DNA of 62,570 nucleotides, filler included, from Collodictyon triciliatum (taxonomy: Eukaryota): the NCBI GenBank assembly GCA_043381765.1. It is 9 parts of 9 records of this genome, joined end to end, with 100 filler letters (N's around TTAATTAATTAA, not from the genome) between each part and the next. Parts side by side here need not be neighbours in the genome. Positions count along the whole stretch, not along the records: positions 50,831 to 58,386 come from JBHJMP010003840.1; 8 more parts are not named here. One strand, 5' to 3'. The notes under the pieces were generated by a model. The model worked only from the letters and a program-made list of their open reading frames with translations, did no database searches and was not told the origin of the DNA. The first letter of the stretch is position 1. Every line of letters starts with the position of its first letter. The translations under genes and the position numbers were made by a program. Below are positions 53,645-60,718 of the stretch, piece by piece.

Positions 53645-54852
53645 TTCTATATGTCCAAGAGATTTATCCATAGCGTGGTTGATATTTTTTCTCAGTTACT
53701 CTTGCAATATTGCTTGGCTTTTCCCTTCTACACATAAAGTAAATACGATATTATCAAAAACTTCGTTGAGTAAATGCTCCGATTCAGTCAGAGACAAAAA
53801 AGAGAGACAAAAGGTGATGATAGAACACAAAAGATATATTGAAAGAATCAATTTTAAGAACCATTCACTAAATTTGAATCGAATAAAGAAAAAAAAGAAC
53901 CATTCACCAAAACATAGTCTCCTTGGTTCATCCATCAGTTGGATTATTTCTATTTCAAGAAATACAGTTGTGTGCAGCACCCTAGAAAATGATTATAGCA
54001 TCTCGAACCGTACTAACGATGCATTCATCAACTTTCTGTCTTCCTCTGCTGTTACAACATGCATCAAGTTGTAGCAAAAGCATCTCACTGTAGTTTTCGA
54101 ACATTATTAAGCAAGTAAGGGCACTATATGACCTCCGCTTTCTGTTGAAGTGTGTTCATCAGTATTCATTCTTGCAATAGTTTTCTTGGACATCAATCAT
54201 TCAGTCAAATAAGAAGTGAGCAGCGGAGAATTGGTTCCTTTTTCTCCAAATGTTTCAACAAATCACTTTTGTTGATATCAGATATTGTTTTCTTCATGCG
54301 TTAATATCTTATACTCGTACAATATTTTAGTTGCTGATTAATTGTTATTTCTAAAAAATAGAATAAAATAAAATAAAATTGCAATTATACCCAAATCAAA
54401 AAAAAAATCATAGCTATATAAGGATACCTTAACATAAGCCTTAAAAAACAGAAATTAGAAAATATGGCATGAAAGGAAGAAAAGAAAGAAGACTTGGGAG
54501 CTGTTAATCCTATTAAAGTCTTGATTTTCAATTTCTCTTTTAAACTTTCATTTTATGACTAATATATATTGCACAGCCGTCATTGGTTCGAATGGTGTTC
54601 TCACATGATTATGACGCTGCCGAAGATATTAGACTTTACACCATTAATACGAAACTCAATACTTGAGCAAACACATGATTTGTGCATGCACCCTGAAGCG
54701 ATCCATGCTTTTCTCAACCCCCTCGCTATTTTTCACGACTACATAGCATCGCAAAATATTTACTCCAAGGCATCAGTGTGTAATGGCCCCACTTTATTCA
54801 GTCAAGCCAAGGGTAAGTATCTCAAATTCGACCTCCACGGCGTTCAGCAGAA

Positions 54853-57800
54853 TCATCCCAAAGAATTAATATATTGAATCTGAGAATAAAATCGCGACAG
54901 CAAGGAACGCAGAGAATCTGAAGAGAGTCGTAAAAACCCCTCGCTGGATGAAACCTGAGACAAATATAATCAAAACAAATTTATATGTATTAGACACTTT
55001 GATAAATTAATAAGACAAACAAGTAAAAAAAAAATATCTACAACGAATGGGCATACCTCTGCCCAGTTGTCGAGGCAGAATAGTTCACACATCAACATTA
55101 ACTTTCTGGTTCCGTATTGGGCAGAAATAGAGTATGTATCGCAAACGCTTTGGATATCGATGCTCTCAGAGAGCGTCTTTAATTAAATATGAAAAGTGAA
55201 GTAAGGCCTTATTGTCACTGAATAGACGAGCTATCAAAGGACAGCATCATATGTAAATGAGTAGTTTTTTTTTTTTTTTAAAAAAAAATAGCCAGACCAA
55301 ATCCTATACCTGCTCGATTCTTAGCAAGAGACCCTCGACCTTAAAATAATCCGCAGCGATTAAAAGCTCGTAAATATTCTCCTCGTCAATTTCTGTAGGC
55401 TGATTGTAAATGAATCCCACGACGAGTAATAGAATATTCGGCTTGACGATGCTAACTGACAGATGCTCACCGTCTATGTTTTCATTGAATAATCATAGTG
55501 CTTAAAAGTAATCGACACACGATCGCAAAATTCAAAGAGCTTGAGTATGTCCTGTACCTCTGGACTCCTTCATTTGATTTCCGAACATCACCTTGAAGTA
55601 GTCGCTCCCTCGAATCAGGACACTCTACAATCAAATAGAATATATACGGTCAATTATTTAAGACAAAAGTGGTATGTTTTATTACATATTATATAAAAAT
55701 ATGTTTGTTGTTACTGGATGAATATAAACCTTATGTGCGTGGATTATGATTCCATCAGACTCTATTTTAATATCGAAATCTTGCGGGTTATTGAATGGTA
55801 AGTTTTCTGGATTCAACCTCTCTGGGTAGTGAAAGCTAGGGGTTATTTCCCCTAAATAACGTATATTTCATAAATAAATCATTTAGGCGTGCGAAGGATT
55901 GATTTTTAACCTATCATAAAAAATGTAGTATAGCTGTGGCAGGATGCCTCGCAATGACTGAAATATTAAATTTTGAATTACTTTTATATGCTCTAATTTT
56001 GAAATCCTTGACCTCCTTCGCCGTGGGCAGTATCAGGTCTCCATAACTAACTTCTGCAATCTACCGACATAAGCGCTTCAGTTTTTTTTGATAGTGCGAC
56101 TTGAGCCAATTACTTGGGCCAGTATTATATTGTGAATATGCGAGTTTTTATGGCTGAATTAAGCCGTAATTATTGTGCCCACCACTTCCTGCTGAAGTTC
56201 TCCACTTTCATCTTTTCTTATTCTCAACATCTCATCATCACAAGGAACCTGTCGAAATTTACAGTCGTAACTATTACGAAGCGAATGATGAACATTGGAT
56301 ACTGCAAGTCCATATCATTTGTATATATGGTCATTCCTCTCACCACTAGTATACCACCAGGGGCCAGATACTGCAACAGGTCATTTAACTTATCTTTCGG
56401 ACATTGAGCACCGCAATGAATGCGGTCAAATGAAGGGAGAGGATCAGATGCATCATTTAAAAAGCAGTTCCGAAGAATACATTTGGAGGCACTGCTCGAA
56501 AGAAGGGGTTAAAAAAAAAAGGCAACTATCAGTTAAGCAAACGCCATATTCGACATTAAAATTAAGAAATGGAAATGTACCTAATATCTACTTCATCTCC
56601 CTTTTGATGGCGAAATGTGCGAATATTTTCATTTGCAAAGTCAACAATACTTTGTCGAATGTCGATTCCGATGGAAAGTCCTGTCTATTCAGCGCGACAA
56701 AAAAATGACAAAAAAAAAACCATAAAAATGGTCAAATTTTTCGATTTTTTTTATTGCATAATATCAATCAATCAATCAAATCAATCAACCAATCAATCAA
56801 TCGAATCAAATCAAATCAAACAAATCAATCAACCGAATTAAAGCAAATCAAAATCAAACAAAATCAGACAAAATCAAATCAAATCAAATCAAAAAAATTA
56901 TTCTATTATAATCAATACTAGTACCGGTCCAACAAGATATGCTCCCAAAGCAGTCATGTGCCCACATCCACATCCAATATCCAGAAATTTCATTCCTGGT
57001 TCGATATCCAAATGGCCTAGACACCTTGCATACATATGAGGCGCCCTGCAACATATTTTTTATTTAGTTTTTTTTTTTTACAAAGATATTATGAATTCTC
57101 GCAATTGGGTAACAAACAAACAAACAAACAAACAAACAAACAAACAAACAAACAAACAAACAAACAAACAAACAAACAAACAAACAAACAAACAAACAAA
57201 CAAACAAACAAACAAAGTAAAACGACTTTACTATCTCTCAATATATTACATGATGATTTGAATACAATTTTTTTTTAAAAGGCATTCAAGAATGGTGGGG
57301 TGCTTGTGTCTTACGAAACATTAAATTTGTATTTTTTCAAGCGAATGGGGCGATCTTCAAATGCCATATCCTGAGGTTGATTAGTAAGTACAAATACTTT
57401 GAATTTTACACTGTCAATTTTCATATTCTATTGTTGATACTGGTTTTTTTATTCTCTACTCTCAAAAAAAAGAGGTCATCATCGAAGATATATACATATA
57501 TATATATAATAAAGTCAGTAACAAAATCGAAAATTGTGGACTAAGCATGGAATGAGGTCTTCTACCTTTTGTTCAGTGGGGAAGAAATAGAATCTAGAGA
57601 TACTTTCCATGGCCCTTTTTGTACGCTCATCCTGAGTGAGTCCCTGTTATGAGGCATACGTGAGCAATTTTTTTATCTTGAAAATAATGATTTTTCTCCC
57701 TTCAGAGTCAAATTATTGTTAAGAAGTTCATATCAAAAAGCAAATCATCAGAATGCACCAATATTCTACGAATAGACGGCTAAATTACGATTTTAAAAAA

Positions 57801-58149
57801 AACCTTCGCGTGTAGATATCCGATTAGCTGTATAAATGATGGATGGTATTGTTGAGAGGGCATTCCAAAATCAGACCGAAGTCGAAGCAAACCAGAGAGA
57901 GATTCGAAAAGAACAAATGATAACGTTTTTAGTAGAATGCAAGCAGGTAAGTACCTTTTCCTTTTTAAATCACAAAAACATACTCGTACTGATAATCCAC
58001 CTTCAGAAGGTAAAAGAGAATTGAAAGGGGATAATTTTGTAGAATTAATCCTGCTTGGTAAGTATGATTACCGATTCATGGTCTTTGAACTTAATTTCAG
58101 ATTGGTCACCCACGAAGTATGATAGCAACGCTGAGAAATCTTGTGGATC
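54853..58149 (-). CDS. Protein-L-isoaspartate O-methyltransferase (PCMT-like) fused to BTB-BACK; many short exons, 5'-partial
   Basis: PCMT part: FKDHES|LIGYLHAK|GLTQDERTKRAMESISRFYFFP|...AFEDRPIR...NVS|APHMYARCLGHLDIEPGMKFLDIGCGCGHMTALGAYLVGP|TGLSIGIDIR...FDRIHCGAQCP...LAPGGILV|VP...VSYGDLILP. It continues in phase into BTB (DIKIESDGIIIHAHK|SVLIRGSDYFKVMFGNQMKES...FIY...YELLIAADYFKVEGL) and BACK (CELFCLDNWAE|VSSSEGFLRLS). Confidence 0.85.
57111..57216. repeat. (AAAC)n intronic microsatellite
   Basis: Direct reading. Confidence 0.95.
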
Positions 58150-58386
58150 CTAATAGTGAATAAAAAAGAAAAGAAAAGAAAAGAAAAGAAAAGAAAAGAA
58201 AAGAAAAGAAAAGAAAAGAAAAGAAAAGAAAGAGAAAAGAAAGAGAAAAGAAAGAGAAAAGAAAGAGAAAAGAAAGAGAAAAGAAAGAGAAAAGAAAGAG
58301 AAAAGAAAGAGAAAAGAAAGAGAAAAGAAAGAGAAAAGAAAACAACTTCTCAGTGATAATAACTCTAAGCTCAATATTAAGTTATT

Positions 58387-59064: not shown

Positions 59065-59157
59065 TAAAGTTTGAAAAGGGAGCCGTGCAATTGGAGCTGT
59101 GCAGAGCAGCTTTTTATTTTATTGCGTTTGATTTGAAATTAATTTCTCAGGTATGTT

Positions 59158-60718
59158 ATGGAGTACCCTAGCGAAGCAAAGTATATAAAGATTCGGAACT
59201 ACAATGACAAAGTTTTAGCCCGTCACACAACTCGCATAACGCCTTTTAACGGTGGTATCTTTGGTCCAACTAAAGTAGACAGAATTCTGTGGAATATTCC
59301 TAGCGAGACAGGTATGGAAATAGACATGGACACATTGATGATTCACTTTGACGTCACCATTGTTCCAGGAGCGGGGACAGCTGCCACCCACGATTATTTT
59401 TTTAACAACTCGATCGAATCAATTATTCAAACACTCCGAATTAGGAAAGGTACTAGTTTCCTTTTAGAGGATATACAACGGTATAATTACCTAGATAGTA
59501 TGTTTATGAATTATGTGGCTGATGACTACAACAAATGTGTAGGTGCCGCGACAATGGGAATCGGGGACGCCTATGAACGAATTTTTAATCATAAATCAGA
59601 GAATAATGCAATTAATTCAGATCTAGTTAAAAAAAAATTATACGATACCATTGAGATTGTCAGGAATCTCTCAGTATTCGGGTTTAATTAGTACATCACT
59701 GATTGATACAACGGCTGCCTTCCAAATCGAAATAGAATTGGCTCCTGCTAATCAATGCATGCAGGCATATAGACGCGACGGTACTGTTGCTGATGGATTG
59801 AGTACGCCTGATACAACAGCGACTTATGAAGTAACAAATTGTTTTATAACATACGATCTAGTTAGAATGGCCCTAGAGTATCATGCTCAGCTTCAGAGCT
59901 CGATCAGCAGAGGAGTACCGTTTCAGATTCCGTATAAGACTTGGCGCACGAGTCTTTACAGTCTACCAGCTGCAACACAAAATATAGTTTACAATATTAA
60001 CGATACTGTGAAATCGTTAAATGCTGTATATGTGGCATTTTTTGACGCTGCCGAGCAGGGGAAGCTTTTGATACCGGGTCGTGACCGAAAGCATTTTCCT
60101 CAGAAATTAAAGACGGCGCAGCTTCAACTAGGTAGCTTTTATTATCCTCTCCAGCCAATGGACTGTTTAAATGGAGCAAGTCAAGTATTTCTAGAGGTGC
60201 AGAAAGCGATGGGTCTGACTTTTGTTAGAAGTGAATATACAGGGCCGTTTGGTTATAACGGCCAACATTTTGCTAGACCACCTGTTGATCGTACATTTAA
60301 TTTACTAACCGGATTTAATGGAGTCCAGCCAGTTACAGTAAAAAAAGGAGGTGTTGATATTGTGGCACCATATGGTCTAGTGGGAGCACAGGCTGTTGAT
60401 ACTTCATATAATGCGTTAAGACAAGGTGATGGCACAGCATTGGAGGAGTATGATGACCCATCAGTCGCTAGATTTTTGCGTGAGGGATGTGAGAATCCTT
60501 GTGAGTTTATGCTAGGCTTTAATCTAAAAAAGGTATTAGATATAGCCGAGGGGGAGATTGTCGGAACAGATATCCAGTCTTCCGGCAGCGGCTTGATGAG
60601 TTTGAGATTAGAGTTTGAAGATAACACTGCAACAAAGTCATACAATGTATTGGTAGCTAGTCTATATGACGCCGTGCTTGAAATCCAAAGTAATCAACAA
60701 ACGTTCCGAGTGGAATAA
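59158..60718 (+). CDS. Major capsid protein, double-jelly-roll Polinton-like-virus type (about 519 aa once one extra A at 59629-59637 is removed)
   Basis: ITPFNGGIFGP...ILWNIPS...IDMDTLMIHFDV; SIIQTLRIRKGTSFLLEDIQRYNYL; YTIPLRLSGI; FQIEIELAP; YEVTNCFITYDLV; IPYKTW; SLNAVYVAF; QLQLGSFYYPLQPM; FMLGFNLKK; GTDI; YDAVLEI. The order and spacing of these beta-strand motifs match PLV-type capsid proteins as I recall them. Confidence 0.8.

Follow-up and report, generated by a model that had tools for sequence, protein, structure and literature searches.

A PCMTD-type methyltransferase fold joined to BTB-BACK in Collodictyon triciliatum, a candidate CUL3 receptor for isoaspartyl-bearing proteins

Structure and transcription of the PCMT-BTB gene

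The window analysed here is a 62,570-nucleotide stretch of DNA from Collodictyon triciliatum (assembly GCA_043381765.1), in which contigs of roughly 7.6 kb are strung together through N-linkers. Contigs beyond the linkers are separate and were not counted as genomic context of the gene described below. This gene, carried by the contig at 50831-58386 and running on the minus strand from 58149 to 54853, joins a domain of the protein isoaspartyl methyltransferase (PCMT) fold to BTB and BACK segments (Table 1). It has 14 exons and 13 introns, the introns all being of the GT-AG type and 84-269 nt long, and the spliced open reading frame (ORF) of 1329 nt comprises 442 codons and a stop codon, without an internal stop. 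The initial annotation had described about 14 short exons and a 24-nt microexon; both are present, with the microexon at 57804-57827 rather than 57805-57828. The five PCMT motifs that it named (SAPHMYA, LDIGCGCG, GIDI, FDRIHCGA and LAPGGILV) were all located, and the phase-1 intron with a split A/GG codon that it placed between the PCMT and BTB halves is exact at 55981-55852. When single exons were compared with Pfam, one matched PCMT (E 1.2e-10) and another BTB (E 3.2e-6), while a lone exon of the 3-box/BACK region gave no Pfam match. Because the exon at 58149 follows an AG acceptor and no ATG was found from 58150 to the end of the contig at 58386, the gene is 5'-incomplete, with at least one upstream exon, carrying the start codon, beyond 58386.

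Contigs of cDNA from three runs (X1 to X3) were compared with positions 54200-56735, a stretch that leaves introns 1-5 outside. X1 and X3 come from one study, their label as RNA is a guess, and they show scattered site differences from the window, so that they are read as strains close to the window genome. Record 3 of X1 (359 nt, depth 5) runs from 56415 across introns 7, 8 and 9 to 55730; its final 17 letters match the beginning of exon 11, the next BTB exon, without a difference. It thereby links PCMT motifs II and III, via the linker exon, to a BTB exon and bridges the 55982/55851 junction, for which an RNA check had been proposed; the joint falls at 55850/55981 with 81 letters on its shorter side. 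Intron 6 is skipped in X1 record 4, intron 12 in X3 and intron 13 in both X1 and X3, bringing the bridged introns to six of the 13 (6, 7, 8, 9, 12 and 13). For intron 10 the support is the 17-nt loose end alone, intron 11 is uncovered, and no single cDNA contig spans the whole gene. A poly(A) tail is seen in X1 at 54779. Two contigs start within exon 12, in the BTB domain, at different points; both starts carry adapter-like letters that we take to be a template-switch adapter, and the contigs are read as truncated cDNAs. Run X2 spans 54657-54891 alone and shows no joint; it was left out of the evidence. These data confirm that the gene is real, transcribed and spliced, with both halves in one transcript rather than in two separate ones.

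The genome holds a second copy of the gene (locus L008, contig C3509, 5882-2590, minus strand) with the same 14-exon layout. Its first ten exons are identical in length to those of the window gene, including the microexon: the matching paralogue intron offers one in-frame AG..GT candidate of 18-30 nt, and this is also 24 nt long. The 79- and 122-nt exons flanking the phase-1 PCMT/BTB intron are likewise shared. The two proteins are identical at 286 of 441 residues (65%), with 74% in PCMT, 54% in BTB and 57% in BACK; dN is 0.17-0.32, and synonymous sites are saturated. Also encoded in this genome are a canonical PIMT with T-I-S-A-P-H-M-H (locus L001) and a CUL3-like cullin, for whose first exon all 14 of 14 PDB matches are Cullin-3 (best E 9e-5). 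Two other PCMT-profile matches in the genome proved to be unrelated methyltransferases.

Table 1. Features of the PCMT-BTB gene (positions along the window)
Feature	Position	Strand	Evidence or remarks
All 14 exons	58149-58072, 57827-57804, 57643-57566, 57370-57315, 57045-56925, 56684-56581, 56491-56344, 56248-56183, 56060-55982, 55851-55730, 55624-55558, 55473-55310, 55176-55057, 54954-54853 (stop)	minus	gene model
First exon seen (internal)	58072..58149	minus	AG acceptor, GT donor; 78-nt paralogue counterpart, 61% identity over 31 aligned residues
24-nt microexon, first helix of PCMT domain	57804..57827	minus	predicted from DNA; fills family-profile positions of first helix; paralogue match
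Exons 3-7, PCMTD-type methyltransferase core	56344..57643	minus	Pfam PCMT, motifs; intron 6 skipped by cDNA
Pre-motif I FNVSAPHMYA, split by intron 4, Asn at channel position	57325-57027	minus	
Motif I	56984-56961	minus	
Post-I GIDI	56669-56658	minus	
Motif II	56430-56407	minus	
Motif III	56367-56344	minus	
Exons 8-9, final PCMT strands and beginning of linker helix	55982..56248	minus	introns 7 and 8 skipped by cDNA
Post-III motif VSYGDL	56051-56034	minus	
Phase-1 GT-AG intron, 130 nt, dividing PCMT and BTB halves	55852..55981	minus	codon A/GG = Arg; skipped by cDNA
Exons 10-12, BTB domain	55310..55851	minus	Pfam BTB E 3.2e-6; family alignment
HAHK of BTB domain	55741-55730	minus	
CUL3-binding phi-x-E motif, M-K-E	within 55576-55562	minus	family alignment
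Exons 13-14, 3-box and short SPOP/BPM-type BACK helices	54853..55176	minus	tblastn to family members E 9e-4, 3e-3; introns 12 and 13 skipped by cDNA
Stop codon	54855-54853	minus	
3' untranslated region; poly(A) addition site near 54779, another contig reaching at least 54620	54779..54852	minus	loose poly(T) end of 22 nt ahead of 54779 in X1; X3 record 6

An old and widespread PCMT-BTB family

A search with one exon returned 12 proteins, 10 of them PCMT+BTB fusions, and a profile built from the fusions returned 83 proteins at E<=1e-40, with both domains in 67. The window model is colinear with this family along some 400 residues, identity being 30-38% and the best E 7e-89. It has the family layout of PCMT, linker, BTB and BACK with Asn-[IV]-S-A-P-H-M, and its linker length of 37 compares with 34-39 in 52 of 57 members. 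Members are found in Amoebozoa (Arcella, Difflugia, Pyxidicula, Rhizamoeba, Flabellula, Copromyxa with two genes, Acanthamoeba, Nematostelium, Physarum and Acytostelium), in green, red and glaucophyte algae (Bryopsis, Asterochloris, Bangiopsis, Porphyridium and Cyanophora) and in one heterolobosean (Pharyngomonas), although transcriptome records among them may contain contaminants. A further member with the id prefix 'Clim' is presumably from the holozoan Corallochytrium. In the ESM Atlas, one PCMT+BTB cluster has 62 members, mostly Chlorophyta.

The fusion is thus not special to the C. triciliatum genome. The architecture is already in public databases under automatic names only (for example Acanthamoeba XP_004339934.1 and an Arcella UniRef entry). 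No description of the family was found in the openly accessible literature, subscription journals lying outside the search, and in the accessible part of the PCMTD1 structure paper (PMC12590147) BTB, CUL3, amoeba and evolution occur nowhere. The family is apparently unstudied. What would be new here is a PCMTD-like receptor on CUL3, with a function inferred for a family not unique to this genome.

A prokaryotic source was also considered. Scanning GTDB with two peptide patterns gave nine loci and no prokaryotic PCMT-BTB member: two loci are similar with interrupted frames (L010 and L011) and the other seven are weak motif-I matches. L010 (1170-2842) and L011 (618-1476) are interrupted eukaryotic-type PCMT(-BTB) genes in bacterial metagenome-assembled genomes, one of them within a 6.9-Mb 'chromosome', and most likely reflect contamination of the assemblies by an alga and an amoeba. 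Among metagenome contigs, at least two loci were considered as relatives; both are unrelated methyltransferases without a BTB match.

A methyltransferase-fold domain probably of the PCMTD type

Against solved proteins, a PCMT-only profile matched human PCMTD1 best (E 9e-39), followed by archaeal PIMT (8e-28) and human PCMT1 (4e-24). For the trees, about 330 domains, with no archaeal sequences among them, were reduced for redundancy. The BTB-, RING- and His-type domains, the last including animal PCMTD, form one branch against eukaryotic PIMT and the bacterial root, with support of 100 in a quick tree (73 rows) and 100/100 in a mixture-model tree (46 rows). A shared origin of the BTB-type and PCMTD1 sensing domains is therefore likely from the sequences. 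Monophyly of the BTB type has a support of 94 in the quick tree and is unresolved in the careful one, so that the tree does not fix the order in which modules were swapped. Among the best 150 of 1.84 billion representatives, 53 carry BTB, 10 RING and 10 a SOCS-box, and three are canonical PIMTs. The model of one fused homologue, P0036, has a predicted local distance difference test (pLDDT) score of 92.7. It matches PCMT1/PIMT structures (1I1N, 1JG1) at Z 29.3-29.8 with a root mean square deviation (rmsd) of 1.6-2.2, and PCMTD1 at Z 27.8. An AlphaFold model from 10 sequences was poor (pLDDT 67), with a non-discriminating Foldseek result, and was set aside.

According to the accessible part of its structure report (PMC12590147), PCMTD1 binds isoaspartyl (isoAsp) peptides of two sequences and not the Asp peptides, does so only with S-adenosylmethionine (SAM), and does not methylate them. 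The same part of that report states that a Thr-to-His change blocks the channel in PCMTD1 and, when made in PCMT1, removes most activity. At the channel position the window protein carries Asn, neither the Thr of PCMT1 nor the His of PCMTD1. Asn is found there in 106 of 111 BTB-type domains (Thr in one, Arg in two, two unparsed), while Thr is found in 122 of 124 canonical domains (Asn in one, Ile in one) and His in 23 of 23 animal-type rows. A first count had placed Asn in nine canonical PIMTs; in most of these it was due to an alignment shift, and the recount gave one of 124. The SAM-binding and pocket residues are otherwise intact, and the canonical set of pre-motif I, motif I, acidic post-I and motifs II and III is present. 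Across the 111 BTB-type domains pre-motif I is strongly conserved (S 100%, A 97%, P 99%, H 92%). The post-III motif reads VSYGDL in the window protein and VxY[GS][DE]L in the family, vs VxYVPL in canonical enzymes. These features fit an isoAsp binder that is probably catalytically weak or dead.

It is noted that related domains occur in other architectures. Six proteins combine RING with an Asn-type PCMT domain containing a large insert and a C-terminal Yippee/Mis18 region (P0084, P0085, P0129, P0144 from Euglena, P0150 from Apiculatamorpha and P0190 from Papus), with a Pfam Yippee match in three of the six. The Yippee fold is common to the cereblon imide-binding domain, and such a protein might act as an E3 ligase on a single chain, equipped with two sensor domains. 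Four others carry a PCMTD-type domain and a C-terminal RING (P0112 from Pelomyxa, P0137 from Mastigella, P0113 and P0156), two of them with a protein kinase in between; they apparently are further separate couplings to ubiquitin ligases. Many of the His-type, non-animal-like proteins P0165-P0244 have long C-terminal regions lacking a Pfam match, and single cases carry TIR (P0197, with Gly at the channel position), a SAM domain (P0200) or a weak UBA-like match (P0191).

The BTB-BACK half and CUL3

BTB-BACK and BTB-3-box proteins are substrate adaptors of CUL3. The contacts with CUL3 are a phi-x-E motif and the 3-box, according to the part of the source that was available (PMC3616122). In the family, phi-x-E is present in 52 of 109 members and phi-x-[E/D] in 101 of 109; the window protein has M-K-E, and its C-terminal half aligns to the family 3-box pattern. 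In the paralogue, Thr instead of a large hydrophobic residue was read from the sequence at the phi position. Neither a BC-box nor a Cul5-box was found in the window protein, whose C-terminal half aligns as BTB-BACK to the stop codon.

By sequence the family BTB-BACK is closest to SPOP (E 1e-34), and the P0036 model superimposes on SPOP BTB-BACK with Z 22.5 and an rmsd of 2.0 over 175 residues, through BACK. A homodimer of the P0036 BTB-BACK was predicted with a score of 0.65, vs 0.32 for the best control, and the runs share at least 84% of contacts with pLDDT of at least 88, a result that may derive from the likeness to SPOP. Of 29 eukaryotic homodimers, 17 reached the mark applied (one of the seven without an older solved relative), and of 30 monomers none did. 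Because three prolines lie at family helix alpha1 in the window copy, its dimer appears less certain than that of the homologue.

The initial annotation called the fusion an independent solution. This holds for the docking module, which is BTB-BACK and not the BC-box/Cul5-box of PCMTD1, while the sensing domain looks like the one ancient paralogue to which that of PCMTD1 also belongs. Since CUL2 and CUL5 are animal-specific and the CUL3 clade spans supergroups, as stated in the available part of the source (PMC12816148), BTB coupling is likely older than SOCS/CUL5 coupling.

Proposed function and alternatives

The proposal of a single PCMT-BTB-BACK protein that is a candidate CUL3 adaptor is supported by the cDNA, the fused homologues, the kept motifs and the SPOP-like fold. 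We favour, with modest confidence, a PCMTD-type isoAsp reader that serves as a CUL3 substrate receptor and holds its ligand without repairing it. The methyltransferase-fold domain is encoded together with a linker helix, BTB, the 3-box and a short BACK on a single spliced mRNA. Judging from the kept motifs, the N-terminal domain would bind SAM and isoaspartyl-bearing chains. The channel Asn would weaken or block methyl transfer, so that a damaged protein would be held, with repair carried out by the canonical PIMT. As in adaptor biology generally, and given the kept motifs, BTB-BACK would dock on CUL3-RBX1, probably as a dimer, and the bound protein may then be ubiquitylated and degraded.

Several points weigh against this proposal. 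Ubiquitylation by CRL5-PCMTD1, that is by a cullin-RING ligase (CRL) built on CUL5, is not demonstrated in the accessible part of the report (PMC12590147), whose text gives no residue number for the Thr/His site; we placed this site just before I/L-S-A-P because the only Thr/His pair seen in the alignments is there. Asn differs from His and also occurs in one canonical-type domain of 124, which weakens the case for lost catalysis, and the fold comparison does not separate PCMT1 (Z 29.3-29.7) from PCMTD1 (Z 27.8). Grouping the BTB-type with canonical PIMT by constraint costs 25-32 log-likelihood units and is not rejected by the approximately unbiased test (p-AU 0.078 and 0.144, after removal of two long rows). 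In 77 of the best 150 representatives no BTB, RING or SOCS module was detected, many of these being fragments or His-type. The window copy itself is divergent (best identity 38%) and duplicated, and the three prolines in its alpha1 stretch are seen in one of 56 other parsed members. It should also be mentioned that six of eight coding differences from the cDNA contigs alter an amino acid, three of the six lying in the last ten residues and three in one depth-5 contig.

An active methyltransferase riding on a CUL3 adaptor, which would methylate isoAsp for repair or as a methyl-ester/succinimide mark and pass failed substrates to CUL3, appears rather unlikely. S-A-P-H-M, motif I and the post-I Asp agree with canonical PIMT better than the corresponding residues of PCMTD1 do (SAPCIY, motif I Asn), the fold is equally near to active PIMTs and to PCMTD1, and Asn is smaller than His. 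Against these stand the family-wide loss of a near-invariant Thr, the post-III change from VxYVPL to VxY[GS][DE]L and the separate canonical PIMT; repair and degradation combined in one protein, as the initial annotation had offered, becomes less likely with Asn in place of the channel Thr and a canonical PIMT in the genome. It is unlikely, to a slightly greater degree, that the protein, as a CUL3 adaptor, recruits specific regulatory substrates and uses its methyltransferase fold to bind proteins or to sense SAM, and not to sense damage in general. In T cells PCMTD2 binds the IL2RB and CD247 tails and increases their ubiquitylation, and the available part of that study (PMC10798966) mentions no dependence on isoAsp; duplication in the window genome and in Copromyxa suggests specialisation. 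The strongly conserved pre-motif I pocket is instead what would be expected for a fixed chemical ligand, and the isoAsp preference of PCMTD1 over Asp in peptides of two sequences, again from the part of the report accessible (PMC12590147), points the same way.

We regard it as very unlikely that BTB-BACK of the window copy serves only oligomerisation or self-turnover, or is decaying, with no substrate delivery to CUL3. The altered alpha1 region, the paralogue's Thr at the phi position and the lower paralogue identity in BTB-BACK (54-57%) than in PCMT would fit this; M-K-E and the 3-box pattern are nevertheless kept, the gene is transcribed and spliced, and dN comes to 0.29-0.32, synonymous sites being saturated. 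That the model misjoins its parts or merges two neighbouring genes can hardly be credited. The junction is bridged by one depth-5 contig from one study, and two contigs start in the BTB exon, but the contig joint falls at the predicted GT-AG sites and the paralogue has the same exons. The model is also colinear over about 400 residues with natural fusions (E down to 7e-89) with a linker of typical length, and the internal cDNA starts differ and carry what we take to be the template-switch adapter, like truncated cDNAs.

A broader history can be proposed only tentatively, and we hold it to be doubtful as a whole: a non-catalytic isoAsp reader coupled to CUL3 through BTB-BACK would have existed by about the time of the last eukaryotic common ancestor, PCMTD1/2 of animals would have swapped BTB-BACK for a SOCS box when CUL5 appeared, other lineages would have fused the reader directly to RING, and isoAsp would be an ancient degron of general use, recognised by a single family of receptors whose ligase modules are interchangeable. 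IsoAsp damage is so far a putative degron, bound by PCMTD1 in a CRL5 complex according to the accessible part of the report (PMC12590147). Sister families on CUL3 and RING provide comparative evidence that the job of the domain is to feed ubiquitin ligases. If the receptor reading is true, damage-degron recognition would reach from animals to much of the eukaryotic tree. The sister families also provide simpler test systems, namely a CRL3 receptor of two components, RING versions on a single chain, and genetics in algae or amoebae.

Other features of the window

On the same contig, at about 50994-53400 (plus strand), lies a convergent multi-exon gene with a P-loop and weak AAA_33/AAA_18 matches, which we presume to resemble 2-phosphoglycerate-kinase-like proteins. 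No link between it and the PCMT-BTB gene was seen. The next contig carries two overlapping intronless ORFs of 182 and 363 codons (59143-60718, plus strand), for which Pfam and PHROGs gave no significant match. The 363-codon ORF resembles double-jelly-roll major capsid proteins: its ESM Atlas matches of 0.96-0.98 are mostly to viral clusters with low recognition, in some of which Capsid_NCLDV is found in 10-18% of members. The two ORFs probably belong to an element endogenous to the protist, either Polinton-like or from a giant virus.

Comparison with known systems

The window copy shares architecture, motifs and linker length with the other PCMT+BTB proteins of the databases, from which it differs in being divergent, duplicated and altered in the alpha1 stretch of BTB. 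With canonical PIMT/PCMT1 it has in common the fold, as judged from the homologue model, motifs I-III and S-A-P-H-M; the channel Asn, the altered post-III motif, the BTB-BACK fusion and a probably separate branch set it apart. SPOP and plant BPM proteins present the same order of an N-terminal substrate domain, BTB, 3-box and short BACK, with a phi-x-E motif, and their substrate domain is MATH whereas that of the window protein is a methyltransferase fold.

PCMTD1/2, receptors of CRL5 (PDB 9OMA, PMC12590147), share with the window protein an N-terminal PCMT-fold, likely of the same branch, in which the channel Thr is replaced, a C-terminal cullin-recruiting module, and a canonical PIMT in the same genome. 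The replacing residue is Asn in the window protein and His in PCMTD1/2, and S-A-P-H-M and the motif I Asp are kept in the former. The two also differ in the recruiting module, which is BTB-3-box-BACK for CUL3 in the window protein and a BC-box and Cul5-box with Elongin BC in PCMTD1/2. Unlike PCMTD1/2, the PCMT-BTB family is probably dimeric, as the homologue model suggests, and occurs outside animals.

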